The notes below the pieces were generated by a model that saw only the letters and a list, made by a program, of their open reading frames with translations, was not told where the DNA came from and did not search any database. DNA of 63,961 nt, counting the filler, from Atractiella rhizophila (Eukaryota), in NCBI GenBank assembly GCA_021432655.1. It is 4 parts of 4 records of this genome, joined end to end, with 100 filler letters (N's around TTAATTAATTAA, not from the genome) between each part and the next. Parts side by side here need not be neighbours in the genome. Positions count along the whole stretch, not along the records: positions 29,038 to 53,429 come from MU271727.1; 3 more parts are not named here. One strand, given 5' to 3'. Both the position numbers and the translations under genes were made by a program. Positions 4,186 through 62,630 of this stretch are shown piece after piece; position 1 is the first letter of the stretch; each line of letters starts with the position of its first letter.

Positions 4186-4479
4186 ATGGCTAATATTAAT
4201 GGGGCATGCTTTTGCAGAGAAATGATCCCGTTCAGCATTGTTTCCATTCTGACGGTCATATTCAAAATCTCCGACTGGACCACGAGCCACATCACGCACC
4301 AACAAGAACAGCAGGAGCAAATGCTCAAAAAGCAAGAGCATCTGCTTCGAGAGCGGCTCAAGCAAGAACAACTGCTCAAGGCCTCCTACTGGATTCTACT
4401 AGTACTCCTTGCACTGCTGTTTTGTTTTCCTGGCGGCCGTGCTAAACCCTTTGACAGGTGGTATGCAGAGATATTGTAA
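4186..4479 (+). CDS. Small hypothetical membrane protein (hydrophobic segment, Q-rich coiled coil, hydrophobic segment), copy 1
   Basis: Open ORF of 97 aa; a close paralog with preserved reading frame lies inverted at 26280-26603. Confidence 0.5.
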   Translation: MANINGACFCREMIPFSIVSILTVIFKISDWTTSHITHQQEQQEQMLKKQEHLLRERLKQEQLLKASYWILLVLLALLFCFPGGRAKPFDRWYAEIL

Positions 4480-26279: not shown

Positions 26280-26603
26280 TTAAGGGAACTCACTATCCTC
26301 CATGGTACACCTATTATGTAACTCCCCCCACAATACCTCTGCATACCAACTACCAAAGGGTTTAGTACGGCCGCCAGGAAAACATAGAAACATACAAAAA
26401 CAAAACAGCAGTGCAAGGAGTACTAGTAGAATCCAGTGGGACACTGTGAGCAGTTGTTCTTGCTTCAGCTGCTCTCGAAGCAGGTGCTCTTGCTTTTTGA
26501 GCATTTGCTCCTGCTGTTCTTGTTGGTGTGTGATGTGGCTTGTGGTCCAGTCAGAGATTTTGAATATGACCGTCAGAAGGGAAACAATGATGAACGGGAT
26601 CAT
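26280..26603 (-). CDS. Small hypothetical membrane protein, copy 2 (paralog of 4186-4479)
   Basis: About 500-bp inverted duplication (about 26155-26670 versus about 4155-4650); ORF preserved with an in-frame 6-aa insertion. Confidence 0.5.
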   Translation of the reverse strand: MIPFIIVSLLTVIFKISDWTTSHITHQQEQQEQMLKKQEHLLREQLKQEQLLTVSHWILLVLLALLFCFCMFLCFPGGRTKPFGSWYAEVLWGELHNRCTMEDSEFP

Positions 26604-28755
26604 TCCTTTGCAAAAGCAAGCCGCATTGATATTAGCCCTCTTTTGTAGTTACAACACGGCCGACGGCCTTTGACAGTGAATTCGATTTTTGAATCGGCAC
26701 AGGAAGTAGTCCCTCTCGCGCGAGAGGCCGCGTCATCGCGTGAGATCAGGGAAAAGCACGCGCAGTGAGACAAACAACACTCCAGGTTTCCACACTTCTG
26801 ATTTTTGGGCGGTAGTGTTTGAACTACCACAGGAACAACCGGACCGTGATGTCTGTCTCGCGCTAGACTTCAGTAAACATGTTCCACTTTCCAGAGGAAA
26901 GCAAGTCGCTTGTCTCCACTGCGCGTGGTTTCCTGATCTGGCGCGAGAGGTTGAGTCATTGCGTGAGAGCAGGAAGTCGCACGAGAGGGAGAGTCGCGCG
27001 GGAGGGTTAGCCCGTTTGTTGCGGAAATTGTGGAGGTTAGTCATTTTTATTTATTTATTTTCATAAAACAAGTTGCTAATGGTCGCAACAGTTACCTGAA
27101 GGATGAATGCGATATTCTGCACTGGAGTGATTCTGGCAGATTTGGGTTATCACGGATGAAAAGTTGTTGATGAAGCAAGTTGCGTCGAAAATTGTTGAAA
27201 CAGAAAGACTACGCCAGCTTTGTGAATATTTTCCCAACCAGCTCGAATAAACAAAGCTGATTTGAGACAATCTCAGGTAGGTCAGCTCAACGTTAGTTGT
27301 CTTAACATTGATTTGAAATTCAACTGATCACGAATTGGATCTCCAGAAGCGCCACAATCCAATTTGTGTGTGAGACGTTTCCTGGTAATTACAAGGTATG
27401 CTTTTTTGTTTTTGTTTCGTTGAAATATGTTACTGACTACCAGTTTTTCTACCAAATACTTCAGTATTTTCTCTTCTCGTGGCTTCGAAGCAGAATGAGG
27501 TACTTCTGAGGTGTTCGATTGAATGAATTTGAAGTATTGGCAAACTGACAGTGCTCGGTAAGAGTAAAAGTTCAAGATTGACCTATTCTTGAGACGGACC
27601 TAGATGATACCAATCTCACCTAAACAACAAAAGAGGACAATCAAAATGACGATGGGGCGAATGACTTGTACAATATCATTTGGAGCGAGAGCTGCCACCT
27701 TGAACATGATGATACGTTTCAGGGGGTGACGCTTCCAATATTACTAACTACTCGCCCTAAATACTCGATGATTTGCAACAGGTGGCAAGCTTCAGCTCAT
27801 AATTAGAAGACACGAAAACGTGTTTGTCATAGCTCTCGCGCGACTCAGCCTTTCGCCCGAGAGGTTGGTTATAGGCGAGAGGAAAGTTGGAGGTGATCGA
27901 GGTTCATTGGGTCGGGCTCAAAGGCTGGAAATGAACTCACTCGCGCGAGAGCAGGTTATTGATGGCGAAAAGGAAGGGAAGGGGGAGTTTGTGCGTCGCA
28001 GCGGTTGTTCAATGATCAGTGTCGAGTGCAGTGCCTCCGCCTCCACGGTGGAAGTAAGGTTTTGAACACCTTGGATTTTGGATCTTTGGTCGTGCGGCAT
28101 TTGCGGTAATTTGCTATTCAAACTCTCAAGAAATGGGACCTTCTATCGCGCGAGAGTAGACTTCAGTCAAGTCGGTGCAATGCCTAGATCGAACGAGGCG
28201 TTTTGAACGCCAGCCACCGTTCGTCCAGGTCCATGATCAACTAGCATTATCCTCTCATTATAAGAGGACTTTTGCAGAGTTGCAGAGAGGAGAAAGGATC
28301 ATGGAGCCTCCCAAAAAACCTAAAAGAGTTTTCAGACCCAGTCAAAGGTTCCTGTTTCCCGCTAGTCTCACTCCTGTACTGAAGTTGTGGCAGGTGCATG
28401 GTGTGTGGCATTGTGTTTCAAAACATCATACCAATTATCATCTAGGAGTGCACAATAAGGAGAGTAGCCTGTGATAAAGTATTTTGTTGGTCTTAAGAAA
28501 ACTTGGATACTACTGATTTTTTGAAGGAAATGCCTCGTTGTACAGGCTGCTTGGCATGAAGGACCTTCTCAATTCTTAACAATCCTAAGCAGGAGGTCAG
28601 TCGAGGCGACAAATGTTCACGGCAATCTGTCGAAGAACAAAAGCGGCTTTTTCAGCATGCAGTATCCGGCGCTGACCCCGGCCGGTTGATGCAAGGTATG
28701 GCATGACTTGTCACGGTAAACAGGGTTACTTACATCTGACAAAGACAAACAACAA

Positions 28756-28937: not shown

Positions 28938-29037
28938 NNNNNNNNNNNNNNNNNNNNNNNNNNNNNNNNNNNNNNNNNNNNTTAATTAATTAANNNNNNN
29001 NNNNNNNNNNNNNNNNNNNNNNNNNNNNNNNNNNNNN
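28938..29037. other. Artificial assembly spacer
   Basis: Exactly 100 bp: Ns flanking TTAATTAATTAA (stop codons in all six frames). Confidence 0.98.
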
Positions 29038-29038
29038 T

Positions 29039-30909
29039 GGTGTTGTATCGGGTTCGCACGCGTCGGGACCCGGTGGCATGGAATCAGGAGCAGGAAATGC
29101 GGAAAACGCGTCGGATCGAGCTTTTTTCGACTCCCTACAACGCCTGGCTAAGGAAGGACGACTTCAAGGCATCCTGAACGCGTCGGGTTGGGTGAATACT
29201 TCAGAATCGGCATCGCAGGTAGCCACCACCAAGTTCCTCGATTCTATTGGCAATCTTGTTCAAAATCTCACCAGCTCGGTTACGAAGGAGAAAGAAAAGG
29301 AGGGAGGAATGTCTGTGATAGATGGGACAGCAAGATTTTCAGGCGCGTGTCCTCCAGTGAGTGTTTCGTTTGTCGTCGGGAAAATGATGCTTGGAGTTTT
29401 GGGCGTCCGCCAGTTAGCTGGCGTTGTGCGTGCAGTACTGGTTAGCTGGGTTGCAGAAGCTGTTCTGGCAGCTTGCGTTGCGTTTTGCGTTAGAGCATTT
29501 AGCTCAGTTAAGAAGTATACAACTGTGTAGGCAGTTGTAAAGCGTCGCGTCACTGGTTAGCCAGTTCTTGCAGCGGTCTTGGCAGCTGCATTGCGTTGCA
29601 GTACTGGTCAGCCAGTTTTCTCGCGCAGTTGTGTTGACAACTGCATTCTTTGCGTTACTGGTTAGCCAGTTAGTGCAGCTGTGTTGGCAGCTGTCATGCG
29701 TTGCGTCACTGGTTAGCAGGTTAATAGAGCTGTGTGGGTACCTGCCTGCGTTGCGTTACAGGTAGCGGGATTGTTGGGAGACTGCATTATGTTCCAGTTT
29801 CTTGTCTTAATACAGTTGTGTTGTAGACTGTCATGGTGTGCTGTGTTTCACACCAAGTTTTAGGGGATTGTGATTGAGAATGGAGCTGATGAAATGTGCG
29901 GTGAGACAGTGGCTGCATGTCAAGTTGTATGAACATGCGAAGAAGAATCCGCACGCATTCCTCGAAATGGCCGCCTATTCGCCAGGATTCAACAAAACGC
30001 GTACCCCCAACATGTCAGACAAAGTCGCAATCGATCTCAACCTCGGCACCACAGTTTACGCCACCAACTCGGTGGAACATATCCTGAAGAACTTCAAAGG
30101 GAAGGACAAGCTGCTCTCCTTCGATGAATGGTACGGGGCGGCGAAGGTCCTGTTGAGAATTTTTCGAGAGGCAGAGGACAAGCACGAAGGAGCGGCGGTG
30201 TGTTGGGAAAGATACATTGATTTGGTGGAAGGTATCTACTACGGCGAGGGGAGAGGATCGGCAGAGAACTGGCCGGTCATCCGCGACGCAGATATTCGCC
30301 ACAGGAATCAACACGCAGTTTCAGGCAAGGATCTGGGGAATGGGTCGAGAGCGTGGCCCGATATCAGCAACTCGGCTGTGTTCGAGTCGCTGTATCAGTC
30401 GGTGGTACGAGAATCGCTGCATTCGATCGTCTCAAGACCAACTGCGACGCCTTTTCCCTCACCCTCAAATCGCGCGCCTTCTCAGAGAAACGGCCAGCCC
30501 TTTCGGAGCGGCTCCACGTCTCCCTACGAGAGACGTCAATCGGCGGCAGGTAGCGTCGCCTTTAGCTGTTGCATCCAGTGTGGAAAGGATAAAGCGGTCT
30601 GCGGTAGTAGGACATGTAGGTCGATTGTAGTGTGCAGCGGTTATCTGGCTGAGCTCAAGAATAGGGCAGTGGTGCAAGGAGTCAACCACAGTGGCGGGTA
30701 AGCCCATCAAGAAGCAGTCCCTCCCTCGTTCCGCCCTCCTCGACCCCCAAGGACGCGTCGCATGTTCTCAGTTCAACATCAACCATTGCAACTTCAACAC
30801 AAACTGCAAGTACAACCATTCGTGCACTATCTGTGGAGAAGCCCATTCAGCCAGACAATGCCCATCCGTCGAAACTAGACGCGGCAGCGCCACTTCCTCC
30901 TCGTCCTGA
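29039..30909 (+). CDS. ORF1 Gag-like protein, spliced (predicted introns 29357-29909 and about 30616-30664)
   Basis: Frame open from the gap; GTGAGT donor at 29357 and GCTGAT..ACAG acceptor join in frame; CIQCG and CSQFNINHC..C.Y.H.C..CG..H....C zinc fingers typical of Ngaro ORF1. Confidence 0.7.
29410..29860 (+). repeat. Tandem array (about 51-54 nt period) of twin-hairpin units
   Basis: Units start at 29437, 29552, 29603, 29657, 29708 and 29758; consensus ACTGG-TTAG-CCAGT, spacer, GCAGCTGT-GTTG-GCAGCTGC, then TGCGTTGCGT. Confidence 0.85.
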
Positions 30910-32815
30910 ACGAATTCTTCCTTCGCCGCCGCCGACACTTTCTAGCAAAGATTTCGTGCGAGCGAAGGAATTGGTGACGCCTCTTAATACGCCGGTGTGG
31001 ATCAATGGTTTAACGGTTTCAGGACTCCTGGACCAGTTCCAGGATGTGGTTTCTATTCTGGCTCACGGTTTCAAAGTGGACGGACTCAACTCCCCCCCTT
31101 CCTTCACCTTCACTCCCGACAACCACCCCTCAGCTGCGCAATACCAATCATTCTTAGATGAGTACGCAGCGGAGGAAGTGCTTTTAGAGCGGTATGCGGG
31201 TCCGTTTACAAAGGAGCAGGTTGAGGAACTGCTAGGCTCCCCTTTTCAGTCATCGCCTTTGGCAGTCGTTCCCAAGTCGGAGCCAGGAGAATTTCGTTTG
31301 ATACAAGATTTATCTTTCCCCAAGGACAGGAAAGTCCCTTGGTGGTTGTGGAAAAGGTGGAAGAAAGATAGGAGGGATTACTATGCAAGAAAGAAAATGG
31401 TGTTGAAGAGGGAAGGGAAGTTGTTCGGGAAAGTGGTAGATTGGGCGGAGCTGGTGGATAAAGAGCGGTTGGATGAGGGAGAGGAGCGAGCGATAGGGGC
31501 AGGACAAGACGGCGGGCCTCTGTCGGTGAATGCAAGGGCGGAAACGGAGAAGTACGAGTGCGGATGGGATTCATTCAAGGACATGGCGGCAGCGGTTTTG
31601 GAGGCTCCACCTGGCGCTCAGGCGGCGGTCGTGGATGTCAAGTCTGCCTTTCGCCTCATCCCCTCTCATCCATCCGTTCGATGCTGGCTCGTCGTTCAGA
31701 TCCGACCGGGACATTTCTACATCGACAAGTGCGGTTGCTTCGGTTTGGCACCAATGCCGATGATCTACGGTCGAGTAGGGGATGCGTTGGTGGCGCTCGC
31801 AGAGTTCCACGGTTACGGCCCCATCAAGAAGTGGGTGGACGACAAGGCGATTTTTCGTTTCCCGCCTTACAAATATGACCTGGCAGGCTTCTTCAGCGGC
31901 ATGGTCTCTTATGGCGTGGCGTGGAAAGAGGCAAAATGCAAGGATTTCGCGTTTCGTTGCCCGTACGTCGGGTTCGAATGGGATCTTTCGTTGAAGACGG
32001 TAGAGCTGAAGCGGGAGAAGGATGACAAAATCTTAGGAATGGTGCGAGAATGGTTGGGGGACGGGTTTGTGTGCACGGCCAAGGACGTAGAACGCATGCA
32101 CGGGCGCCTGGTTCACCTCACGTACATCATTCCTCAAGGCAAACCATACTTGGCCAGCTTGATCGCATTCCAGAAGGAATGGGGCTTCCAGCCTTCAGTA
32201 CCCCGTTCGCTCAACAACTCAGTCCGCGCGGATTTGGAAGTCTGGTTTTTCTTCCTCACTCACGCCCCCATTCGCCAGCTAATCCCTTCTGTTGCTCCGG
32301 TCGACATCTCTTGGATCGGAGACGCGTCTACATCGTTCGGGATGGCGGCTATTATTGGCGATTATGCGGCGCTTTGGGTATGGAAGGGGGGACCTGTGGA
32401 AAATACGTGGATTGGATGGGGTGAAATGCTCGCGGTGGAATTGGGGTTGAGATTACTGGATTGGATGCTGGACAAGGGCTTTCTTCGTTTAGGACCGCAC
32501 GAACGAACAATTCTCGTCAGATCAGACAATTCGGGAGTTGTAGGCGCCGTCAATCGAGGAAGGTCGCAAAACGTTCCGATCAACGAGTCGCTGAAGCGAG
32601 TGTACGAGCTGCAATTCGCCAGGGGTCTGACAGTGCACTCGCAGCATTTAGCGGGTAAGGAGAATCGCTCAGATGCTCTATCCCGAGGTTCCTTTTCGCG
32701 TTTTCGCCGCGATTTTCCTCATTGCAAGGTAGTAGAGATTATGGTCCCTCACGAAATTTCGAAATTTGTGGGTTTATGGCCAAAGCCATATGAGGCGTCA
32801 TTCGATTTCATGTAA
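30833..32815 (+). CDS. ORF2 reverse transcriptase-RNase H of the YR retrotransposon
   Basis: SSPLAVVPK, RLIQDLSFP, DVKSAFRLIP, FGL, KWVDD and YVGFEW; RNase H DASTSFG, EMLAV, RSDNSGVV and NRSDALSR; open for 660 aa. Confidence 0.95.
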   Translation: MEKPIQPDNAHPSKLDAAAPLPPRPERILPSPPPTLSSKDFVRAKELVTPLNTPVWINGLTVSGLLDQFQDVVSILAHGFKVDGLNSPPSFTFTPDNHPSAAQYQSFLDEYAAEEVLLERYAGPFTKEQVEELLGSPFQSSPLAVVPKSEPGEFRLIQDLSFPKDRKVPWWLWKRWKKDRRDYYARKKMVLKREGKLFGKVVDWAELVDKERLDEGEERAIGAGQDGGPLSVNARAETEKYECGWDSFKDMAAAVLEAPPGAQAAVVDVKSAFRLIPSHPSVRCWLVVQIRPGHFYIDKCGCFGLAPMPMIYGRVGDALVALAEFHGYGPIKKWVDDKAIFRFPPYKYDLAGFFSGMVSYGVAWKEAKCKDFAFRCPYVGFEWDLSLKTVELKREKDDKILGMVREWLGDGFVCTAKDVERMHGRLVHLTYIIPQGKPYLASLIAFQKEWGFQPSVPRSLNNSVRADLEVWFFFLTHAPIRQLIPSVAPVDISWIGDASTSFGMAAIIGDYAALWVWKGGPVENTWIGWGEMLAVELGLRLLDWMLDKGFLRLGPHERTILVRSDNSGVVGAVNRGRSQNVPINESLKRVYELQFARGLTVHSQHLAGKENRSDALSRGSFSRFRRDFPHCKVVEIMVPHEISKFVGLWPKPYEASFDFM

Positions 32816-33079
32816 CCAACAGCATGTCGTAGCAAATTAGTTTTTTCCTTTTTCAGTTTTCAGTTCATTGGTTCACTGCATGGGCACTTGGGCTTTCATC
32901 AAATTATCACCAGCAAGGCGTATTAGCAGATGTTTTTGTACTTAGTGACGACGTGCAAATATCCCAATTATCAAGGTTGTTTGACTTATATACAAACTGT
33001 CTGTTGGAGGAAGAGAGGCAAGTACATTGAAGCTTGATGGTGCGTATTGGAACGCAAGGTTACCAGAACCATCACCATC

Positions 33080-34269
33080 ATGTCTCGTTACCAGGACCTT
33101 GTACAACAGGCACAACAATCGGCTTATCGTCGACTATTGGCTTATGATCCACAGCTTTTGTTTCCAAAGGTCAAAGCGCAAGATAGAATTTACAGTGGAA
33201 ACCAGAGTAACACGTCCAAGCGGTCTACAGCCACCCTCGACTTCAAAACCTGGTTGCCCTCGCGTCTGCAGCTTCCCTGGATGAATCGACGCGTAAATCA
33301 TACGGTTCAGGATTAGCGAAGTACCTAGAATACTGCGGGAAGATGAATTTGCCTCAAAGCGAAATCTTCCCGGCCTCGAAAGGCATGATTTTAGGTTTTG
33401 GTTTATGGACGTGCTTAAAAGAAGATGGAGGAGTGGAAGGAGAAGGGCCTAAGAAGTTGGTTACGCCGCAGACAGCACAGAAGTACGTCACGGCACTTCA
33501 TTCGTGGCATACACACCATGGATTGCCATTCGCACTCTCCTCAAAGGAGGATTGGGATTATTTTCATTACCTCATGCGCGGCGCAAAGAAGTTGCGAGGA
33601 GAAGAGCTTAAGGCTCCTCGCCCTCCAGTTACGCTACACATGCTCCGCGCCTTACACACTGGGCTGGACTTTCGCAACTCATTCGACTCCTGTTGTTGGG
33701 CGGTCGCAACATCTACCTTTTTTGGTTTGATGAGATTGGGAGAAGCTACCGTGCCCAGCAAACCGGAGCATGCACGACACCCAGAGAAATACATCCCTCT
33801 TCGTAACGCGACTTGGAATTCCGACAATTCAGGCGTCGGGTTTCTGAAACTATCCCTTCCGCACGATAAGACGAAGAATCGCGTTTTGCGACCGGGAGAG
33901 AACCCAAACGTTTTTCTGCCGCGACAAGCAGACCTGAAATTGTGTCCTGTGGAAGCTTTAGCCCACCACCGATCAATTACCCCGTTGCAACCAGACAACT
34001 TTCTGTTTTCATACATTGACCGCAAGACCCTTCATATGCAACCAATGACGAGACAAGCCTTTCTGAAACGCGTCAACGAAATTTGGGAAGCCGCAGGTTT
34101 GGAACGTGATGTATCAGGACACAGTTTTCGAATTGGAGGAGCCTCCTTTTTCCTGGGACAAGGGATCTCTCCCCTCACCGTACAATGGGCAGGCAGGTGG
34201 AAATCACTGGCATTCACCTTTTATATTCGAGCTTATGAGGACATCATTCCTAAGTCGTTGGCAATTTGA
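33080..34269 (+). CDS. ORF3 tyrosine recombinase; catalytic domain intact (33343-34269), N-terminus apparently disrupted
   Basis: STRKSYGSG (N-terminal SAM-like domain), FFGLMRLGE, HDKTK, GHSFRIGGAS and GRWKS.AF..YIR; apparent frameshift near 33190 and in-frame TAA at 33208. Confidence 0.9.
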
Positions 34270-34619: not shown

Positions 34620-35001
34620 GAAGAGTAATGTGCGTCTCAGGAGTCAGAGTGAGCTGAAGAACAGATTTGTTGGAGGCAACGAGCAATCCGTGCAGTTGAA
34701 AGAGCACAGATTTCGCCCACATGTGATGAGATTCATTGTCCCAGTCCCTGATATCTTCCCAATCAGCAAAACCTGCGGCGATGCCTTCACCATCAGAACC
34801 AACTTCGCGCCAAGTGTTAAGACACAGGTGAAAAAGTGTCAGAACCTGATGTGTTTGAACACAGGTCGAGAAAGGAGTAACGAGATAGAATGCCTTCCAG
34901 GCTTCGTCCCATCGTTTTAGATCAGATCCGATGGATGAAAAGGTCGTCCCTAACTGTTTGACTAACTTGCTGTGATTGTGAATGGATTCTGGGTCGGCCA
35001 T
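34620..35001 (-). pseudogene. Truncated paralog of the first exon of the 42173 gene
   Basis: SIHNH..LVK.LGTTFSSIGSDLKRWDEAWKAFYL.TPFSTC...DGEG.AAGFADWE shared with ORF 41637-42173; similarity stops near the retrotransposon. Confidence 0.85.
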
Positions 35002-35970: not shown

Positions 35971-37592
35971 GTATGTGCGTTAGTCGATAACGAAAACAAA
36001 CCGACTAGATAAAAGCCCAGAAATTGGTTCAAAGTCCAAAGCACGTGAGTAAGCGAATGAGTCTCGCATTGATCACCGAACGCCCCGACCTGGCACAGCG
36101 TGAAGGGGGGTCAAATCAGGAACACGACCCTAACCCAGCGTTGAATGGAAGGTGAACAAAAGCACCTCTGCTCTCACACCTTCCGACTCCCTTTGCCTTC
36201 GTGTCCTTTTCTTCGCCCAACGCTCCCTCCGCTGCAGAGTTCAAACTGTCGAGGAGGTGGCTCATCTTGCTTACCACCTCGTTTGGGGTCTTTCCAAAGC
36301 TCACAAACTCTCGTGAGGGTTCAGAGTGTTGGAAAAGACAAAACGCGTTCAAATTTCATCTATACCTCGACCACACCTTCGAACGTGTCTCTGATAAATG
36401 TTACGAGCGTGATCGAGGGCTGCAAGGTGCGAGACAAAGTAAAGCAGAAAGCTTGTGTTAACATTGAGTCTATATGAAGGTAGAGAAATACATTACCTGC
36501 AAGGTGCGAGACAAAGTAAAGCAGAAAGCTTGTGGTCTCGCACTTGCAGGAGATCTTGTTTTATAGCAGAGAAGATGAATAATAAGGAAAGAGACTAAGG
36601 AAAACCAACAGCGCGCCAGCGTGCGAAAGGAGGGTGCGTAAATGGTACCGTGGCCCCATCAGTCTCTCTATCAGGTCGGTCCCAGAACTGAATCAGCGTG
36701 CTTGGAACAACCTTATGAGGAAACTTAGACGTCTCTTCCTCAAACCTGGTGAGGAAGCCGGTAAGAAAAGGTTGACAACTCTTTGTATCGACTGTTGAAC
36801 GTGCTGGATGGAACACTTCTTTCTGCCTTTCTTTCAAAGTTTGATGTCACTATGTGGTGAGAATCACCATGTCATTAGCAATCTGGGTATGAGAACCCGA
36901 GGTGAATTTGACAATGCTACGGCCATGACACCGACCGCGTTCCTACCACGCTTTGTCCAATCAATTTAGGGGCCGAAACGGGCAAAGAAAGAGAGAAGAT
37001 ATCACGCCCACTTCTCAGCGCCCTCTCATTCTCAAGCCATAACTACCGAAGAGTCTCCCGAAGGCTCCAAAAGGGCTATGGCCGGCGAACTGCATTGAAG
37101 CGCCACTTCCACCACTCCCCGAAGTGCCTGTGAGGGAGGGTGTGCCTTGAGGTTACGCGTTCATGGGAATAATTACTGAACGTTGATATTTTGAGTTGGA
37201 GCGGAATCACTCCCTTCCGAGGGACGTTGGTTCCCGCGTCCCGTCTTCGCGCCATTTCGTCGCCTTTCCTTGTGTTCACGACCTATCTGGTTGCAGTGAT
37301 TACATTCAGCCCACACGAATGTGACGAGATACGTCTGGAATGCTTGATCAGCCGTCGTGAGGGGTTATCGATGGTCCTCATCCGCGGTTGCCTTTCTCGG
37401 TACACACCGTGCTCTCCGAAAGATTCACTGGGAGCAAGTGAGTTCTGCCGCATTCCTTCAGGCACTTACCAACCAGCAGAGCATCGTCCGTGCTCTCCGC
37501 TTTGCTTCCAGGTATAAAATGAGGTACGAAGATCCGTTCCTAACTCAGAAGCCAATCAAATCAAAATAACACAAGAGAAATCCTCATCTACC

Positions 37593-38523
37593 ATGTCAAC
37601 CAAAGTTTTCGTCATCACCGGCACCTCTCGCGGCATTGGGCTCGAGCTCGTCAAACAACTATCCGCCGTGTCCTCGAATCTCATTTTTGCACTCGTTCGC
37701 AACCCCTCCAAGGCGGTCGAACTGGCCACCCTGGCGAGCCAGAGGAAGAACGTAGTCATCGTTCAAGCGGACACGAGCGTAACGGCAGAGATCACAAAAG
37801 CTGTTCAGCAAGTCGAAAAGGAACTAACAGGCAGAGGTCTGAAGGGAGTCGATGTACTGATCAACAAGTAGCCCTATTCTCTACTCTCTTCTAACGACAA
37901 GTTCTCACGTTGGTTTGGTTACAGCGCCGGCATCGGTGGCCCTCGCGATTTCTGGACCACCGTCATAAGCAAAGCGACGTCTTGGGAGCCGGAGGATTTC
38001 CTCGAACTCTTCCGAGTGAACGTCGTAGGAGTAGTGGAGACGACCAAGGGGTTCCTCCCTCTTCTCCATGCCGGAAACGACAAGAAGATCTTGATGGCGT
38101 CCAGCACAGTTGAATTGATCAGCCCTGTTGGAACTGACAAAGATATCCTTGGGTCTGGGAACCTCGGAGGATCTCCCCGTACGCCGTTAGCAAAACTGGT
38201 GCGTCCGTCCTTCGAGTACGAGGGTGGCCTATCCCTGACGTTCAGTAGGACTAAACATGGTTTCGAGGAAGCTGGCGGCTGAGCTTAAACCTGAAGGATT
38301 TACGGTTATTCTGGTACAGGTGCGTGCCTTCCTCTTCAGTATTGTTTCGTCTTTTGCTCATGTGGGATGATAGCCTGGGTGGGTAAAGACGGATATGGGA
38401 GGTGAACAGGCGATGTTGACCACTGAAGAGAGTGTTACCGGGTTGGTGAAAAGGATCGAGGAGATTAAGCCTGAAGAGTCAGGCCATATCGGGGCACCTG
38501 GAGAAAAGTGGGAAGGCTTCTGA
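37593..38523 (+). CDS. Short-chain dehydrogenase/reductase (CsgA/C-factor-like), multi-exon
   Basis: ITGTSRGIG, DVLIN/NAG split by an intron, VNVVG, YAVSK and PGWVKTDMGG; splicing near 38095-38190 is ambiguous. Confidence 0.85.
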
Positions 38524-38830
38524 AGCGAGAGTCTTAATGTTATCGCGAATGAATGTCAGGTGTAAGCTAGGTATTGCACGGTAGACATAACAGAATAGTG
38601 TTGGTGAAAGGATCGAAAGATCGAAAGCGTGCACAGGATTTATACCTGCCGGCTAACACATAGATAGTTTCTTCCGTGACGTAGTATCGGAATGGTAGAA
38701 GCTGGAACGTTGATTTCATGAGGCAAAGAACATTTACGGGAATATTTTTTTATCATTGCTTCATGGCGCTTTCAAGATGCTAGCTTCAAAACCTGTCGGG
38801 TTATCATGGGATATTTTATGGCACATATTG

Positions 38831-40030
38831 TTACGTAAACCTGAGTGGTCGATGTAAAGTCATCCCTCGAGACAGTCGCCATGTAACCTCTTTTGCCTCT
38901 GTTTCCTGGTTCGCCATGTATGCCCTAGCTGCACCAATAATGTCCGTTTTATCTCGCCATCGTTCGACAGACATCTCAAGTCCCCCATCCTCGTCGAAAC
39001 GAAAGTAACGATGTTCTTTTTCCATGACCGTCAGGCGTAGTTTCACGGAATTCGAGATCCGAGTGGACCGCAACGTAGCTGTTGCTAATGTTTCCACCAC
39101 ATCAACAGACGTCTGGGTGCTGGTGCCAAGTTTGACTCGTGGTTCTCGACCACTACCAATGGAAACCAGGCATGAGAAATCAGCGTGAGGTCCCCAAATA
39201 CGTTTGATCTCGGCTAACGCGAGAATAGTGGGATTGCTATTATCGTTGACACCTGCGAGGTATTCAGTGTGATCTATCTCGACGGGTTCGAAAAGCCCTG
39301 GAAAAGCTGCCGTTGCCATGCAAGCTTGTAGGAAGGTACATTTAGGGCTGGAAAAGCCTGCTGCTTTGTAAGTGCGAAAAAGCTCGTCGTCCACCCAAGA
39401 AGCATTGTAAGAAGCGGTAACAAAGACTCGGCAACGGTCTTCAAAGCGGTGATCCGAATCTCGAAGAAGAAGCGATTTAGGGTCCATTGATAAATCAGTA
39501 GAATTGGCGCTCAAAATTCTGAGAATGGCTTGTTCCATCGCACCGGAGGCTTTTTTGCGGTTGGCATCATTCATCGCTTCGATTGCTTTTAAGGGTGGAC
39601 CTGTATCAGGAAACATGGCTAGGCCATATTCGGAGTAGACGTCCAGAGCTTGTTTGGCGGTTAACCCTAGCCTCCCGAGCAAAAGGGCAATGAATCCTCC
39701 ACCGGAACTCCCACAAATCAGGTCAAAGAAGTCGCAAGGTCGACAAGTCCCAGCTGGGCGATATCCACAAGCACGGCATTTTCCATCAGAGTCAAATGAA
39801 CAGATCTGAGGTAGGGAGCAGGGTGTGATGGTCACATCACTTATGAGCGAAGTTTGAAGCATTTTCATGATATGATTGAGAATAACGAGCTCAGAGAGGC
39901 AGCGAATGCCCCCTCCATCCAAGCATAACACGCGAAGTTCTCTAGGATTTGGCGGCTTCGTAAAAGGTTGTGGCGCATGGATCTTGTCAGCCATGGCAAC
40001 GTTGCAACAGGGTGGGCTTTCTGCTTCCAA
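38831..40030 (-). CDS. Patatin-like phospholipase domain protein A (first ATG at 39994; link to the upstream exons unresolved)
   Basis: VLCLDGGGIR, FDLICGSSGGG, ATAAFPGLF, NP, VSIGSG and YFRF; the DGG position reads AGV. Confidence 0.9.
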   Translation of the reverse strand: MEAESPPCCNVAMADKIHAPQPFTKPPNPRELRVLCLDGGGIRCLSELVILNHIMKMLQTSLISDVTITPCSLPQICSFDSDGKCRACGYRPAGTCRPCDFFDLICGSSGGGFIALLLGRLGLTAKQALDVYSEYGLAMFPDTGPPLKAIEAMNDANRKKASGAMEQAILRILSANSTDLSMDPKSLLLRDSDHRFEDRCRVFVTASYNASWVDDELFRTYKAAGFSSPKCTFLQACMATAAFPGLFEPVEIDHTEYLAGVNDNSNPTILALAEIKRIWGPHADFSCLVSIGSGREPRVKLGTSTQTSVDVVETLATATLRSTRISNSVKLRLTVMEKEHRYFRFDEDGGLEMSVERWRDKTDIIGAARAYMANQETEAKEVTWRLSRGMTLHRPLRFT

Positions 40031-40309
40031 AACACATTTAATCCGGTTCCAATGTCAGCTTGGGTCCTTACCAGAAGGATCAAGAGTGCAGTAGTCTAGT
40101 GAGATGAACTAGGATTTCGCTGTTTCTGAGATCTTCCTCATACTGACTTTCAGGTTGCGGGGAAGATGTGTACTAGTACTAGTCGAACGCTAACTGCTGA
40201 GATTGAGGTTTGCATTTCCCTTATTTATGGTTCCTCCACCACCTGATCCGGAGACCTTGGACTAATTCGGTTTAGAAATTTCCTATTGGAGCTATATTGA
40301 CGTTTCACG

Positions 40310-42173
40310 GTGAGAACAGGTAATTGTTCATCTTCATCAGCAGTTCCATTACATCAGGCACCATATTCTCCAAAATCTCCAACAATATCACCAGCGCCGC
40401 ACCCTTTGAATCTCAGGTCGCGTTCGGCTCCAATTGACGTGTACAGTTGGATTGTATTCGCCTCTGAGGAAGTCTGCATCCTTCTCGAAGTTTTCTCGAA
40501 AAGCGACAAGATCTCCAACCTGGATCCTGAGTGCTTCGGCATTCTCCTGAAAGACAACTCGAATGTGAGAAGATCCAGCATCACCATTCTCAGCACTTTG
40601 TACCATCTCCTGCAGAGTCTGGTTGATATGCATCATAACGGCGCTAGTTAGCGACCACAATCGATCTCGGCTTTGACGGAGATCCCTCTTCCACCTCGTC
40701 ATCCTGTCCTTCGCTAATTCGTCCTGTGGAAGAGTAGTTGTTCCGAATGATAAGGGCAAGACGCGATCGGTGAAATAAACGGAATAAGCCGTAGGTTGAA
40801 GAGACCCTGCTGAAGATCAATTCCAATCCCTTCATGGGAAGGCATACATACAAAACTGATACCATTGCAATCTGAGCCAAGTTAGGATTCCAAGCAATCC
40901 ACCAGCGCTGCTTTCGGCGCGCTCCAACTGGCAAGTAATTGAATGCGACAGAAGCTCGCTCGCTGGTTCGAGAAAGACGAAAAAGGAGCTCAGCATGATG
41001 GAAGTTCGGGAAAAGGAATGGTGAAGCTTGGAAACTGAGTCTTTGGCCTTCTCATCATTTAGATTCTTTCCCAACAGGAGCTTTTCGAAGACAATGAGGA
41101 AGTCATTCACGAAACATTCGTAGTCGTGGATCATCAAAAGCAAAATAAATCGCAAGTCTTCTTGGACCAGCCGGACTTCTGCAGGCGGAACAAACCAGCG
41201 AGCTTCGACTGCAGCGTTGGCCCATTTTAAAGAGAGAACGAGATATTCAAGCTCCCGGTTGCAGAGAATGCCGATGCTCGAGAGGGTCATGGCATAAAGA
41301 TCGCTATCCGAGGGTAGCGGTCGCGGGGCTACAGGTGGATGTGGGGTCTGGTGTAGATTATTGGAAGACGCTGGGGGGTGCTGTCGAAACTTTGGTGAAA
41401 GCTGAAGGAAATCGACGGAAAGTTTCAAAGCGCGACCATGCAAAAAGTGATCTGGGACAACGTCCCCGTACACATTGCTGCAATCTAGCCATGCCGACGT
41501 TGAGACAAGGATCAAAGATCGTTGAAGGTGCAATCTCCCAGCTCGGAGACCTTGAAGGTAGGCTTCGACTTCCTTCCAGAAGCCAAGGAGACCTTTTGAG
41601 CAAGATTTGATGACCAGGAACTGTTGATGAAGATTATCACTCAAATAGTCTATTTCGAGCGTCAGACGAGAGAGAGCAAAAATGTTGATGCTGACCAAAG
41701 TCCCGCCTTTTGTACAACTGTGCTGGTCGACGCCAAAACCAAAGATATGATGCAGCATTCACAAAACGAAGGTGGTCATGACAATTACGGAGTAGCTCAG
41801 TCTGCAAACTGGACATCCTTGTCGCCAAGTGCAATTGAGACTCTGCGGCAACAAGCAATTGCTGCAGTTGGAAGAGAACAGACTGTGCCCAAATATGATG
41901 AGATTCGGTGTCCCAATCGCTGTTACCTTCCCAATCAGCGAAGCCTGCTGCAAGACCTTCGCCATCGGAACGTAAGCTACGCCAAGTCTGGAGACAAATG
42001 TCAAAAAGAGTGAGAATTTGATGTGCTTGAATGCATGTTGAGAAAGGGGTGAGCAGATAAAATGCCTTCCAGGCTTCGTCCCATCGTTTTAGATCTGATC
42101 CGATGGATGAAAAAGTCGTCCCTAACAGTTTGACTAACTGGGCGTGATTGTGAATAGATTGGAGGTCCGTCAT
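40310..42173 (-). CDS. Large hypothetical helical protein, multi-exon, directly upstream of patatin A
   Basis: ORFs 41637-42173, 40832-41758 and 40388-40759 join in frame through short GT-AG introns (for example 41650-41695, GTCAGC..CTGAC..TAG); paralog at 34620-35001. Confidence 0.7.
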
Positions 42174-42586
42174 TGATGAACGTGTCCAGAGGGAGGGTAT
42201 TTTTCACTATGCCAGCCACTGAGATGCTGTTGAATAGCGCACGACGATAGCGAGCTGGCTGGTGAAAGGTTGACGAGGTCTGCTTTCACTTCGGAGCGGA
42301 GCTTCTTACCTTGTTCGAGAGACAAAGGAAAAGAGGGTTTGGAAAGCCCATGCAACCTAATCGGCTTTAACTTGTTTGAAATGAATTTTAGTTCTGACCG
42401 ATAATTGATCGGTTGTCAATCTTTCCACAATGATGGAACTCAATCCGGTTTCATTAGGCTGATTGATTGGTCGAGATCCAAGGATTCAAGCTGTCAATGA
42501 CAAATATTAAGTGAAGAGAGTTGCCTTTTAAATGACCGTCAGGATGCCAGTGTAGAGCTTTGTAACCCTTTGCACTCTCTTTCAGC

Positions 42587-45143
42587 ATGTCTGTGCCTTT
42601 CTCCTCTTCAATGGAGGTTGGTTCAGGACAATCTGAGGATCGCAAGTTACTCAACATGTTAGGGGCGCTCACAATGCAGAAACCTGTAGATATTGATCCG
42701 ATCTGGCCTCGAATGAGAGCGATTGTATCCTGGGGGGAGCAGGAGTGAATGATTATTCCTACAACTCTTCCACCTGGCTAACTGAGGAACAGTGCCTTGC
42801 TTATAAAAGATTCCACACCTCTCAGGCAGTTACAGGATACTTTCAACGAGGTCAGCACCGACTTCTTCTCATGTACGAAGAATATTTTCTTCGCCGTCTG
42901 GGTCTCAAGACGGTTGTTTCAACGATTGCATCGCGATGGTTCTACGAATGAAAGCGTGCTCGCTGATGTAACATGTGCATCCTACTTCGCGGTTACGATC
43001 AACCAGTTATTTCTACAAGGAGTCTCGAGCAAGATTTTTCAATTGAGTCATCAGCTCGATTCAGTGAGCTCGTCTCTTTTCTCATGCAGGATGTCGTCTT
43101 GATGTGCTGGCCATTATAGCTTAGTCAAGAGTTCAAGTTGCTGCATGAACAAAGCGATAGTTACTTTTCCTCTACAGTGAGTAGCAACAAACCCTATTCA
43201 ATAGTTAATGAGACGCTGCAGAACGACCTCATGAGCAAATTTAGTCGTCTGTTCTTCACATTCAGTACCAACGTTGGTGAGGAAAGGTTGAATATACGCC
43301 AGGGTTGACCGTTGAACGCCTCAGACAGAGCTTACCAAACTGGACCGTGCGGCCTTGAAGATTCACTGCGAACACCTGGAAGACATGACACTGAGCCTCT
43401 CTTCAGCTCTCCGACAATGGGCAGATCAATGCAAATTCCTAGAGTCCATTCTGCAAGCAATCAAGCAACAGAGTGTTGTCTTTGCGAGGAGAAACCCGGC
43501 GAACCCCAGATTTCCTGTCGGATGGCATCGCAAGTGTCTTGAGTTGTGGGAGAAAGTCAAAATTCGCACAGCTGAGGATGCTTTCAAGGTATGTCTTGCA
43601 TGTCATCCTAACGTCTCCGAGCTGAATGCACTTAGGCGATACGATGTGAAGTATTGCAAGATATGTATAATAACCCGAAATCTTCCATTGTCAAGGTATT
43701 TAGACGATGTGAGTACAGACGACTGTTTAAGAGTCTCTTATAACTTCGACAGTGCACGATGTCGACTGCGATCTACAGACAGTTAAGTCCTTACACCTCC
43801 TCTGGGAAACAAGCGGCGAGGAGTGCGATCTGAATTTCAAACATCGTTTTCATAAGGAGAAAACTGAGGTTGAGAGAGACTTTTCTGACGCGTACCGAAG
43901 CTTTCGAGGACTGAAGCAATGGGACATGAAGAAGCAAAGCAGCTTTCTACCTAATGCATTGAACGGCAAGGACGTCAGTTCCAAGGGATTTTTGTCTCGA
44001 TATCTCGCGACCGAATCGGGCTTGTTTGACATCGACATACCCCTTGTGACGCCAGGGAACACACCAACCAAGGCATCCTTTGATATCGATGCACGCCGGG
44101 TTGCGCGGCGGCTGAGCTCTCTGACACTTGTGACTCCTTCGAATCTTTCGCGGATAAGGATTTTGTCACTGGACGGCAGTGGAACATGGGCATTCGCTGA
44201 AGTATTCTTTTTGCGAGAGATTCTACGGCAACTCTGCTCGGAACTTTCAGAAGAAGAAAAACGAAAGTACAATCTTGGATGTCATCCTGATGACCTTCAG
44301 CCTCACAAATTCTTTGATCTGATTATCGGTTCCTCGACGGGTGGACTTCTTGCGTTGATGTTCGGCTCTCTAAAGATGTCTGTGAACCAAGCCATTGCTG
44401 CTTTTCGGTATCTTTGTGAGAAGGCTTTCGCCGCAGATCTGGCCGAGGCTTCGGCTGCATTTTCATCTCGCTTCGAAACTTCGTTCAAGGAGGTGATTTC
44501 GAAGGCTGGCCTCAGCAAGGATCAACTCTTTTGCCCTGTTCACGATGGGTGCAGAGTAGCCGTTACCGCGGCTTACGAATCCTCCATAACCGATCTGAAG
44601 GTCTTTCGCTCTCATGAGATTTGGGATGAGGTGAAACTTTGGGAAGTGGCTCGCGCCACCATTGCGATGCCACGCCTCTTTCTCCCAATCACGATTGATG
44701 ACACCGAATATGTGGATGCCAGCGGCGCTGGACACCTGAATCCCATCATGGCCGCAGTCACTGAAGCACACTCCATTTGGAGGGATGATAACTTTAAGTA
44801 CGGCTGTGTCATTTCTTTGGGCGGAGGTGAAAGACCTCCAGTACAGCGAAACACAAATTTGTCGGCGGACGCTCTCTTAGCGGCAGTCGTCGACGCAGGA
44901 CAGCATGGATCTAGAGAAGCTACACAGGCGGATAACTACTTCTGCGATAGCGATTTCTACTTTCGATTTGAGGCCAAGCGTCCGGCTTACACTCATGCGG
45001 TTGAAGACTTTGACCCGGAGAAGTTACGGGAGGCGGCTGGGTTAGCAAAAGCTGAATTGAACAAACCTCGGCGGCAGAAGGAAATTGAACGAGCAGCTCA
45101 GCGTTTATGGACTCTTAGTAAACAGAACGGTGTAGAACTCTGA
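42587..45143 (+). CDS. Protein B: unrecognised N-terminal helical domain plus C-terminal patatin-like domain (about 6 introns)
   Basis: In-frame splice path using GTGAAT, GTGAGC, GTGAGT, GTGAGG, GTATGT and GTGAGT donors into ORF 43752-45143; ILSLDGSG, FDLIIGSSTGG, ARAT.A.P.LF, YVDASG..NP, ISLGGG and YFRF. Confidence 0.85.
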
Positions 45144-45487
45144 TTCGATTCCTGAGCCATTCCTCCAAACAATCCAAGTATGTGTAGCCTCGAGAAGTTC
45201 TTGATTCAGTTTATCATATTTTGTAGTGTGGGTTTGGGTGCGGTTTTCATCTTGTCACTCTCGTGTACGATGACTTCAGTACAATGTAGCCTCAGTCTGA
45301 ACCGTGTAACATTCGCTGAATCGATCGCCATTGATACTTGCAAACAACCTGCTGCTAGCTTGTTCTGGTTATTGGTAACATGTAAATTATGGAGAAGCTG
45401 CTCCCATGAATATTCATGCCAACTTCATGGAAGACAGGAGGCGCAGTAATGAAATAGCGCTGTCGTAAGTCTGCTCAAAGAAGCAGC

Positions 45488-49546: not shown

Positions 49547-52500
49547 TCACTCCAACAACTCTCTCAACGCCTCATCAAACGGAGGCAGCTTGGACTTCAA
49601 GCTGTCCCTCCTACCACTCTCACTCTTCACGATAGGCTCCGGAGCGGAGCCTGCTCGACGACGTAGAGTTTGGGAGGTAGACATAGGGGAGGTACCGACG
49701 TCCTTCTCTTCGCCTCTCCGTCGGTCGTACGTCTCGATGATGGAGCGGAAAGTGAGGAAGAGGACTTCGGCGCGTGCGAGGAGGGGTTCGGGATCCATGG
49801 TCATTGCAAGCTCGTTGCAATACTGCCCAAGCGAAGCACAAAGCATCAGCTCAGCCCTTGAACGCCACGCCGAAAGAAAAAAAAAGAGCGCACCTTGAGA
49901 ATCTCGTCGAATTCGGTCAGATAGCGCATGATCACGTCCCTCTGACTCTCAATGATCGCGAGCGCAAAGAAGATGTGAAACTGTTTGGAATAATGGTCCG
50001 TCCAACACACCTCCCAGATCCTCTGCACCTGTAACCATTCGAACTCCCTCTTGAACAGGCAGAGCATCCACCGGAAGACGAAGAAGAGGTTGAGGGCACC
50101 GACGCGCTCCAGGAATCGGTAAAGTTGCGGATCCATCAGAGCGATGAGCGATTGGAGGAGCGTGAGCTGCTTCTTCATCCCACTTTGATCGCGTAGGAAG
50201 TTGGGCTTCGCTCGCTGCATGAGACCGACGAAACACCAGAAAGCGAGGGCTTCATCTCCTTCTACCACTACGTAGATGGGTGACAGGAGGTCGGACATTC
50301 CTTGAACATACCCTACACCAGTTCGTCATCAATATTGAATTTTCATCACATCACCAAGCGGGTGGAACAAAAAAGCATACCCAATTCGTCCTCATAGTAG
50401 TTGTAGGTCATCAATATCTCCTGCATCTTCCTCACATGGAAATTCGAAGTGGGATGGGCATCGGACACGCTCTCGGACCAATATTCCTTATCCTCCCCAT
50501 CATTTCCACCGTATTCTTTCGACAGCTCTTCTTCCTCCTTCGCATCGTCATCCGCCAGAAACATAGGTTGCGTGCGATCTGTACGCCTACAGTCGATCTC
50601 TACAATGGAACCATTAACTTCATTGGCGAGGAATAGGAGAAGTGGACAAACCGATTCGATGACTCTCTTCTTCAAACCTCTGGCTCTTCCTCACCTCCCT
50701 CGCAGCCTCACTATCCCCCCTCCAAACCTTCTTCAAGCGTGCATACTCTTCCCTCTTCTTCGCCAACTCCTCCGCTCTCTTCTCTCCACTCCATTCCCAC
50801 TCCCAAACACCAAGTAACGCAGGCCACACCTCCTTCCTAACCCCATCCTCGGCGTTCAAACCACGCTGGAAGATGCGCTTCCGAATCTCGGGACCTGAGA
50901 GCAGGAGGGTATGCGTCGTGCTATCTGAGAGGGAGCGGGTGTACTCAGTCAGAGAAATGGGTGTGTTGGACGCGCGAGAGGAATGATGCGGTGTGAGTTT
51001 ATAGGTCGACTGCACCACAGCCAACATCAATCGTCAGCCTGTCCATCCACAAAGGATGGGGTAGAACATGGGGGAACATACAACAAGGACTTCCCAACTC
51101 CCAACCTCTTCCTCTTCCCCCTCTCCTCCGCCTCTAACTTCCACTTCCGCCCTTCTCGCCCGCTCTCCCTCCTCCGCGACCACCCTTGCCCATTTAGCAA
51201 GATATACTTTGGCGCTATCGTAGCCGCCGACACCTGCGGTCTCCGTCCATCGACTGTATAGCTCAGGTTTGGCATGTGTCGCTGCAAGTATGGGTGGAGG
51301 GATGTGTCGCAAAACTGGTTGTGCGAGCGGGTGAGACAGCACCTGTTGTGCGGCAGACTGGGCTGCGGATCTCGCACTGTTTATCCATCCCACAATCAGT
51401 TCAGTTCCATGTCATAATTGTAATGATAAGGAGACCATACGTACTTCTTTGTGATCTTGGAGAATCCGCTCAGGACACCGAAGGTGAGCTGTCCCATGCT
51501 AGGACTTCTAATTCCACCCTCGCCCTCGCCTTCCGTCTCAGTCCCACTTTCCTCCCCACCATTCCTCCTCCTCCCCTGCCCCAAACTCTCATGCAAGATA
51601 CTAAGACTCTTCCCCTTCCTCCTCCTTACCGTCCCCGCACCCGCTGAGGTTCCAGGAACAGGCAAATCAATAGCGTCGTCTTCGAAAACCGGCACAGAAT
51701 GCACTTCTACATCCGCACGAGAAGGATTGACTAGGTAGAGGGAGGAGTCGAGTGCAGAGCGGAGGAGGGAGGTGCAATGTGGTCTGAGATGTGCGAGGAA
51801 CTCAGAGATCGGAGAATGGGGTTTTGCGAATGGTGACGAGCTCGAGGGACCCGATGAGGATATGGGGATCCGACTGTCTTTGGTTCCACCGGGAGTATTG
51901 GCCGTTGTTGTGGACGCTGGTCGATCGTCATGAAAGTATAAAGTTGGGAGCTCGCGTTGAGAGGAGGTGGCGGAGGGAGAAGGAGGATAGGAGTAGATGT
52001 TGCATGATGCGAACCAACTTGAGAGAGTCGGCGGGCGTAGTTGAATCGAATATACCTGAGAAAGAGGCAGGGAAAAGGCAGGTGAATTGGGACTTGAGGA
52101 TGGTGGGAGGGAGACCAGGATCGAGTTGCTGTCGATGGTCTCGGATGTAGAGAGTGTGCCAGACTGAGAAAGATCGACTGATACGTAGGTTTTGTGGTCG
52201 GATGATTGGGAAAGGAGCGACGACGGTATCCAGGATAGGAGGATGGATTCCGTCGTTCCTTCTTTCGCATCTCCCTTCAAGAAACAATCAAACACCATCC
52301 TATTTTTGCATGCCACATTGCGGAAGCAGAGAGACTCACACGTTGCACGATAGCCAACCAACCCTCGACGTTGTCCTTTAGATATGACGTTGGATGAACA
52401 AACACCGCACTCTTCGCATACAATAGCTTGCACGTCTCTTTCGGTACATTCTCGCTCTCACTCCTTTTTACCTTCCCACTGGTTTCCCCTGGTCCACCAG

Positions 52501-53429: not shown

Positions 53430-53529
53430 NNNNNNNNNNNNNNNNNNNNNNNNNNNNNNNNNNNNNNNNNNNNTTAATTAATTAANNNNNNNNNNNNNNN
53501 NNNNNNNNNNNNNNNNNNNNNNNNNNNNN
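53430..53529. other. Artificial assembly spacer
   Basis: 100-bp N/TTAATTAATTAA linker. Confidence 0.98.
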
Positions 53530-62530: not shown

Positions 62531-62630
62531 NNNNNNNNNNNNNNNNNNNNNNNNNNNNNNNNNNNNNNNNNNNNTTAATTAATTAANNNNNNNNNNNNNN
62601 NNNNNNNNNNNNNNNNNNNNNNNNNNNNNN
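62531..62630. other. Artificial assembly spacer
   Basis: 100-bp N/TTAATTAATTAA linker. Confidence 0.98.

Follow-up and report, generated by a model that had tools for sequence, protein, structure and literature searches.

A three-gene patatin locus of Atractiella rhizophila with an orphan gene, a stand-alone patatin and a helical-patatin fusion

The subject of this study is a locus of the basidiomycete Atractiella rhizophila, at positions 38831-45143 of a 63,961-nt stretch of DNA (referred to as the window throughout), which encodes two patatin domains. The window is made of parts that are joined by filler and need not be neighbours in the genome, and positions 29,038-53,429 come from record MU271727.1. 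A sequence-only reading had described two patatin-linked loci, A and B, lying head to head as a co-regulated pair, each made up of an extended helical stretch with a patatin domain behind it, and had proposed a two-component immune or killer system. As shown in Table 1, the region contains three independently transcribed genes, A1, A2 and B, and not two patatin fusions; both the gene structures and the domain class could be established. RNA contigs from four public runs (X10, X1, X2 and X6) were compared with window positions 38700-45300. Run X10 looks like an assembly of transcripts from the same strain, X6 is a root metatranscriptome, and X2 comes from a related organism. The run search retrieves near-identical sequence only, and divergent alleles could not appear in it; the word depth of RNA contigs, quoted below, is a poor measure of expression. 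Database proteins are labelled P0001-P0007, with P0004 being an annotated hypothetical protein of A. rhizophila. The region is eukaryotic, with short introns bounded by GT..AG.

The X10 contig of A1 continues for 100 nt beyond the stop codon at 40388-40390 without another splice joint, and it ends at 40288, close to the end of the X1 contig at 40291, which gives a weak hint of the 3' end. Both splice joints of A1 were also present in X1 and X2, and one of them in X6. The product of A1 is 100% identical to P0004 (564 aa), and the C-terminus ending in RRW is common to all four full-length members of the A1 family. Since the contig runs past the stop unspliced, P0004 is identical and the paralogs share this C-terminus, A1 ends at its own stop and is separate from A2.

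A2 is a gene of its own with a spliced 5' leader. An X10 contig of 1287 nt, without a single difference to the window, spans 38737-40021 and stops at the intron acceptor. The loose end of an X2 contig (25 letters) agrees at 22 of 25 positions when 40021-40071 is removed as an intron, against 8 of 25 for the unspliced DNA. The leader exon, which includes about 40072-40096, contains no ATG, and an in-frame stop lies upstream, so A2 starts at 39994 and encodes 387 aa. The transcript contig and the position of this ATG as the first after the leader intron favour the 387-aa product over a start at Met45. RNA contigs of the four runs leave 40026-40246 uncovered, a gap that was not counted as evidence. 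The description of locus A as one helical region followed by a patatin was therefore not borne out, given the contigs, the identity with P0004, the shared C-termini and the leader of A2.

The sequence-only reading of B as one cleanly spliced protein was confirmed, with an open frame of 754 aa running through six GT..AG introns. Five of these were seen in X10, the shorter side of the joint at 43177-43221 having just 24 letters, and one was predicted only. B is a true fusion, in which a 426-aa orphan helical region is joined to a C-terminal divergent patatin: residues 1-426 are mainly helical, and residues about 427-740 form a patatin module of the CapV/PLP-1 class. An unrecognised N-terminal region had been expected for both loci and holds for B, whose first 426 aa match no family in Pfam and give best PDB E values of 0.13 (exon 5) and 0.92 (exon 2). 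A weak Pfam match to Dopey_N on the open reading frame (ORF) 43316-43786 (E 0.0011) was under the cut-off and was discarded. Some X10 contigs over B, including its N-terminal exon 2, differ from the window by 5-8%; therefore at least one close paralog of B is also transcribed.

The two ATG codons, at 42173 on the minus strand and at 42587 on the plus strand, were confirmed, as was the spacer between them. Because locus A is two genes, the divergent pair consists of A1, which carries no patatin, and B, and two patatin-linked loci head to head were not found. Contigs of A1 extend to 42259-42274, which leaves about 200-300 bp of upstream DNA shared with B. Co-regulation of the pair was unsupported; the word depth in X10, a poor measure of expression, was 260 for the A1 contig and 2-30 for the contigs over B (12 for the A2 contig). 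A predicted complex of A1 with B residues 392-754, run without controls, gave an ipSAE of 0.00 in both runs. A and B are not an inverted duplication: between the patatin parts of A2 and B the identity is 29% over 283 aa (E 1e-25), while A1 and the N-terminus of B are dissimilar (best BLASTP E 0.81; hmmsearch with the A1 profile -2.4 bits; hhalign probability 0.1%); no inverted repeat connects the two sides of the locus. Neither a PP-type amyloid motif (N.G.Q.G) nor a 19-residue hydrophobic window above 1.57 (Kyte-Doolittle mean) was present in A1, A2 or B. The corrected three-gene model removes the premise of a symmetric patatin/patatin pair.

Table 1. Features of the locus and its surroundings, in window coordinates (CDS, coding sequence; RVT_1 and copia-type gag, retroelement ORFs)
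Feature	Position	Strand	Details
A2 CDS	38834-39994	minus	single exon, 387 aa; stop 38831-38833
A2 Pfam Patatin (PF01734)	39224-39928	minus	residues 43-277 of ORF 38831-40054; E 9.3e-15, 55.8 bits
A2 5' leader intron	about 40021-40071	minus	51 nt, GT..AG
A1 transcript	40288-42259	minus	X10 contig of 1881 nt, 0 differences to the window
A1 CDS exons	42173-41696, 41649-40851, 40805-40388	minus	564 aa; stop 40388-40390
A1 introns	41650-41695, 40806-40850	minus	CT..AC on plus, GT..AG on minus; contig joints
Spacer between A1 and B start codons	42174-42586		413 bp; from sequence and gene models
B CDS exons	42587-42744, 42793-43063, 43120-43176, 43222-43275, 43328-43586, 43634-43708, 43753-45143	plus	754 aa; stop 45141-45143
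B introns seen in X10	42745-42792, 43177-43221, 43276-43327, 43587-43633, 43709-43752	plus	GT..AG joints
B intron, predicted only	43064-43119	plus	56 nt, GT..AG
B patatin/CBASS-effector-like module	44148-45092	plus	PADLOC PDLC00758 profile positions 4-317 of 331
B Pfam Patatin	44163-44720	plus	in ORF 43731-45143; E 1.8e-12, 48.3 bits
Truncated A1-family copy	34660-35001	minus	N-terminal 114 codons only
RVT_1 ORF	6641-8017	plus	retrotransposon remains
Copia-type gag ORF	24299-25180	plus	flanking 206-nt direct repeats (24076-25710), 99% identical
Three ORFs in a row (275, 716, 352 aa)	29874-34269	plus	last ORF: Phage_integrase E 4.4e-6, 27.0 bits, just under cut-off
Short-chain dehydrogenase (SDR) exons	37518-38282	plus	adjoins the locus
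F-box-like ORF, 553 aa	45488-47149	minus	E 2e-5; leucine-rich remainder; adjoins the locus
RabGAP-TBC exon	49846-50325	minus	E 1.7e-32
Dienelactone-hydrolase exon	60908-61333	minus	E 8.5e-16

Both Patatin domains of the earlier description were confirmed with Pfam PF01734, each above the gathering cut-off of 27.7 bits. For both, models of bacterial anti-phage phospholipase effectors gave better scores than the generic Patatin family. With PADLOC PDLC00758, a phospholipase effector model of cyclic-oligonucleotide-based anti-phage signalling systems (CBASS), A2 gave E 2.5e-26 (positions 4-274 of 331) and B gave E 1.1e-18 (4-317 of 331), and with the NCBIfam CBASS_lipase model NF041079 the values were E 1.3e-19 and 70.6 bits for A2 and E 1.6e-10 and 40.8 bits for B. 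As both scores are far below the 200-bit equivalog cut-off of NF041079, neither protein is an ortholog of CapV. The PDB sequence relatives of the two patatins were CapV chains only. The Atlas model of A2 (predicted template-modelling score, pTM, 0.78) starts at Met45 and so does not contain the GGGIR motif described below; it matched the patatin parts of fungal Patatin+NB-ARC+TPR, NB-ARC/Patatin and NACHT/Patatin clusters with template-modelling (TM) scores of 0.73-0.83, and it also aligned with patatin-only clusters. Thus the expectation that these patatins are not of the housekeeping-lipase kind gained support from the best scores, which were those against CBASS phospholipase effector models, CapV and the patatin domains of fungal NOD-like receptors (NLRs).

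The canonical patatin-like set comprises a Gly-rich oxyanion motif, GGGxR/K, and a Ser-Asp dyad in which the catalytic Asp lies in DG[GA]. The GxSxG nucleophile column was invariant in a five-sequence alignment of A2, B, two canonical ascomycete relatives and CapV, and the GGGxR motif was present in P0001, P0002 and CapV. In A2 the oxyanion motif is GGGIR (aa 27-31) and the nucleophile motif GSSGG (aa 95-99, with Ser97), and the DG[GA] position of A2 reads YL-AGVNDNSNP, with a gap or Ala in place of the Asp in both the HMMER alignment (against CapV) and the MAFFT alignment; the transcript contig has the same sequence at this site. Since the catalytic Asp is lost, A2 is probably a non-catalytic or altered paralog. 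B has DGSGTW at aa 432-437 where DGGGxR/K is expected, GSSTG with Ser486, and Asp613 in a non-canonical D-A-S; MAFFT aligns Asp613 with the catalytic Asp, and HMMER puts Ser at that position. Its paralog P0003 is 93% identical to the patatin part of B over 390 aa, with the motifs kept, and has a different N-terminus; the same changes are found in it, namely DGSGTW and D-A-S, while GSSTG is kept. Hence these degenerate motifs weaken the simple picture of two active lipases.

Between the oxyanion motif and the nucleophile elbow, A2 carries a Cys-rich insert (aa about 57-87; 39730-39830, minus) with six Cys, among them those of CRAC and CRPC (aa 73 and 84), which are spaced by 8 residues. The insert of A2 could be a small zinc-binding knuckle; the insert found at this position in B is unrelated to it.

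The sequence-only reading had noted no visible nucleoside triphosphatase (NTPase), and this was borne out: A1, A2 and B all lack a Walker A motif, and the 55 further window ORFs gave no NB-ARC or NACHT match. The Pfam scan covered 65 window ORFs in all (55 beyond the locus), with exons shorter than 110 aa outside the locus left out, and among these 65 no NB-ARC, NACHT, SNARE or nucleotidyltransferase family, CD-NTase included, was matched. No TPR, WD or ANK repeat family was matched in A1, A2 or B.

When proteins were searched with the patatin ORF of B, only P0001-P0003 were found among 8000 word-ranked candidates; the A2 family was itself unlisted there, so that this result says little on rarity. 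A metagenome scan with the alignment of B and P0003 gave no relative by tblastn among 208 pattern matches. Foldseek on the low-confidence model of B listed CapE and CapV first (TM 0.3-0.5, root-mean-square deviation about 8 Å), which echoes the sequence result only, with iPLA2-beta, potato patatin and PlpD below them.

A1 has three same-species paralogs, P0005-P0007, with 57-68% identity over the query exon and 63-74% over the full-length alignment. A HMMER profile of the four paralogs gave 5 matches among 1.84 billion representative proteins, all of them the family itself and 4 of the 5 fragments. A1 had no match in Pfam, PADLOC, NCBIfam or PDB (PDB profile search: 0 matches up to E 1), and a metagenome scan with the A1 alignment gave no relative by tblastn among 162 pattern matches. 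By these searches A1 is a lineage-restricted orphan family of four full-length paralogs plus fragments, found nowhere else among the proteins searched. AlphaFold2 with the 4-sequence alignment returned an all-helical model of low confidence (predicted local distance difference test, pLDDT, 36.1; pTM 0.21). A1 gave no SNARE or syntaxin match in Pfam, and the syntaxin rows of the Atlas search had TM scores by query of 0.19-0.27, below the bar for naming. By features, the Atlas search placed A1 at 0.94 from DHC_N1-like and WASH-like helical clusters, with TM by query of at most 0.31 in all structure rows; this was taken as a generic likeness of long helices and no more than a lead.

The truncated A1-family copy in the window is 81% identical in nucleotides to exon 1 of A1, and it corresponds to the only repeat touching the locus, a direct repeat of 34675-34974 with 41847-42146 (81% identity). 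Its first 111 codons are 96% identical to aa 1-111 of P0005, against 74% identity of the copy with the neighbouring A1. Because it is closer to P0005 than to the adjacent A1, a recent duplication from, or exchange with, another A1-family locus is suggested. Between A1 and the truncated copy the ratio of nonsynonymous to synonymous substitution rates (dN/dS) was 0.23. The A1 contigs of the three other runs, in which only near-identical sequence could be found, showed 6 coding differences (4 synonymous and 2 residue-changing) and 1 in the untranslated region, and spliced A1 RNA was present in all four runs. From this dN/dS, from 4 of the 6 coding differences being synonymous and from the spliced RNA, the A1 family is judged to be under purifying selection and not junk. 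The root metatranscriptome X6 contained three spliced A1 contigs, at least 99% identical, over 40872-42178, so that root samples contain A1 transcripts of this fungus or of a very close relative.

Among known systems, PLP-1 (patatin-NB-ARC-TPR) and its SNARE partner SEC-9 are known from Neurospora, HET-Z1 from Podospora and vic2 from Cryphonectria. CapV and CapE are the patatin effectors of CBASS, cyclic-dinucleotide-activated phospholipases that form filaments. The present locus resembles PLP-1/SEC-9 in the class of its patatin module, as seen from the TM scores of A2, and in a two-gene neighbourhood where a non-enzymatic helical protein lies beside a lipase gene. It differs in having no NB-ARC or NACHT, no Walker A and no TPR, WD or ANK; the patatin is C-terminal in B and N-terminal in PLP-1, and A2 consists of a patatin alone; no SNARE or syntaxin match was obtained for A1, and the catalytic motifs of A2 and B are degenerate. 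With CapV and CapE the two patatins share profile matches over nearly the whole effector, the PDB sequence match to CapV, the Foldseek ranking of CapE and CapV and the conserved GxSxG. However, A2 and B score far below the equivalog cut-off, no CD-NTase was found among the 65 ORFs scanned, the A. rhizophila genes are eukaryotic and intron-bearing, and B has a 426-aa N-terminal extension absent from CapV. By language-model features (0.94-0.95), A2 is nearest to three clusters of stand-alone fungal PNPLA proteins from Basidiomycota and Ascomycota (333-377 aa, 61-67 members each); A2 lacks the catalytic Asp and has the Cys-rich insert, and its comparison with these clusters was by features.

In the retrieved parts of PMC12881547, PMC4986451 and PMC10197012, the patatin is a known N-terminal effector of fungal NLRs and almost always accompanies NB-ARC. 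According to the same parts of these three papers, PLP-1 kills only with an active patatin and with the ATP-binding motif in its NB-ARC, and it self-associates during cell death. Adjacent two-gene pairs of this kind, as far as the retrieved texts describe them, have a patatin in PLP-1/SEC-9 and a serine esterase domain in Bcvic1. A literature search found nothing linking CBASS patatins with fungal NLRs; the matches on CapV patatins and fungi concerned bacteria or cyclic-nucleotide signalling. Judged by title and start of abstract, none of the A. rhizophila genome papers among the matches listed was on this locus. The patatin domain class and its stand-alone copies are known, and, on the comparisons made here, what is new is B, with an orphan N-terminus, a C-terminal patatin, no NTPase and a degenerate oxyanion motif; similar architectures may be present in the supplementary tables of PMC4986451 and PMC9156397.

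We consider it fairly probable, taking the account as a whole, that the locus consists of three genes of which B is a regulated effector-type lipase and A1 a neighbour, where the activity, the regulation and the biological role are what we infer. A2 and B carry the patatin-like phospholipase module that is also the membrane-attacking cell-death effector in CBASS (CapV/CapE) and, at the N-terminus, in fungal NLRs such as PLP-1. As B has no NB-ARC or TPR, control of the lipase module would fall to its N-terminal region, through self-association or the sensing of a ligand, and this region would take the regulatory place of NB-ARC/TPR in PLP-1; such control is proposed because PLP-1 activates by oligomerisation and CapV and CapE form filaments. 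B would then be a regulated membrane-lipid hydrolase in a non-self or stress response, and A1, a soluble all-helical protein, would most simply be a neighbour with upstream DNA in common with B. The cell-death patatin module thus appears here in two unusual forms, one free-standing without the catalytic Asp and one fused behind an orphan helical region without an NTPase. If B is active and controlled by its N-terminus, this would be a second, NLR-independent way of regulating a patatin effector in fungi, and it would bear on the immune repertoire of a plant-root endophyte.

Several points weigh against this account. Both A2 and B depart from the canonical catalytic set, and either may be inactive or altered. 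The role given to the N-terminus of B comes by analogy with PLP-1, CapV and CapE. The structure models are poor, that of A1 being too poor for a fold search and that of the last exon of B (AlphaFold2, 5 sequences) having a pLDDT of 48.4. Lastly, P0003, which is B-like, and P0005-P0007, which are A1-like, each lie on a single contig, and each of these contigs is given as 100,820 bp. This suggests a second place that holds the A1 family and a B-like patatin together; such recurrence is unexpected for a mere neighbour, and a segmental duplication would explain it. Such a second locus may have come from duplication of a segment, may be a module held together by its function, or may be a haplotype that has diverged strongly.

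It appears unlikely that A2 and B are ordinary metabolic or membrane-remodelling lipases, unrelated to cell death or non-self, even though the Patatin fold is common to storage, lipid-droplet and membrane-homeostasis lipases and Foldseek also lists iPLA2-beta, potato patatin and PlpD. Both genes are transcribed in culture-type runs, and housekeeping genes (SDR, RabGAP-TBC and dienelactone hydrolase) lie nearby, which speaks for such lipases; on the other hand, their best profiles and structures are the CBASS effector and the fungal NLR patatins, with the match extending past the Pfam domain into the C-terminal part, the N-terminus of B is orphan and differs from that of the 93% identical P0003, and the catalytic motifs are degenerate. 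The loss of canonical catalytic residues in both proteins would also fit decaying duplicates, that is, functionless pseudo-enzymes in a repeat-rich region of fast turnover, with the B fusion as a recent accident of exon capture. Transposon ORFs (RVT_1, copia gag and tyrosine recombinase) do lie within 35 kb upstream, a truncated A1 copy stands beside the recombinase ORF, and the contig depth over B is low. Nevertheless, all frames are intact, with the six introns of B restoring a single 754-aa frame, the genes are transcribed and correctly spliced, and the motifs are kept between B and P0003 in a patatin part 93% identical over 390 aa, so that we regard decay as quite improbable, the most doubtful of the explanations weighed here.

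The A1 family and the patatins may instead form an NTPase-less module duplicated as a unit, in which A1 would be the abundant partner (inhibitor or antidote, guardee, or sensor) of low-abundance B, A2 or both; we hold this to be a slim prospect, on a par with that of ordinary lipases. A1 does lie between two patatin genes: 413 bp separate it from the divergent B, and the A2 leader follows it within less than about 200 bp. The word depth in X10 was 260 for A1 against 12 for A2, again a poor measure of expression. The contigs that carry P0003 and P0005-P0007, all given as 100,820 bp, point to a second association, but an equal contig size is indirect evidence of linkage, and one segmental duplication would suffice without any function. 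Both families are lineage-restricted or divergent and lie beside transposon remains with truncated copies, and adjacent two-gene systems of lipase-NLR and SNARE for cell death are known (PLP-1/SEC-9 and Bcvic1); A1, however, has no SNARE or other recognisable domain, and A2 has no catalytic Asp. A1 also varies little in related runs (4 of the 6 coding differences are synonymous), a weak objection given that only near-identical sequence could be found there. The sharper version, in which A1 would be the cognate sensor, guardee or antidote of NTPase-less patatins of the CapV/PLP-1 class, kept through duplication, and B would have swapped NB-ARC/TPR for a helical N-terminus, seems a little less likely still; if true, it would represent a new wiring of a conserved cell-death lipase in fungi. 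The two-component idea of the sequence-only reading thus survives only in altered form, with the A1 family and a patatin as its components, and there it shares the low standing of these two proposals.

In the surroundings of the three-gene locus, the row of three ORFs at 29874-34269 is probably a Crypton- or DIRS-like tyrosine-recombinase element, and it abuts the truncated A1 copy; two 71-nt direct repeats lie near it, at 29547-29722. In the retrieved part of PMC9156397, Starship elements of Pezizomycotina carry patatin-like (PLP) cargo genes. The present region is similar in its repeat-rich setting and in having patatin genes no more than a few kb away from a tyrosine-recombinase ORF, and it differs in that the recombinase ORF matches Phage_integrase only (27.0 bits) and the host is a basidiomycete. 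A Starship element was not supported by the recombinase ORF, which gave E 0.29 with DUF3435, the Starship captain family. On the other side of the locus, the F-box-like ORF is convergent with B, with 345 bp between the stop codons. At 28938-29037, 53430-53529 and 62531-62630 there are two runs of exactly 44 N each with 12 bases between them, none of which touches the locus. Long inverted repeats were observed at 4145-4428 and 26397-26680.

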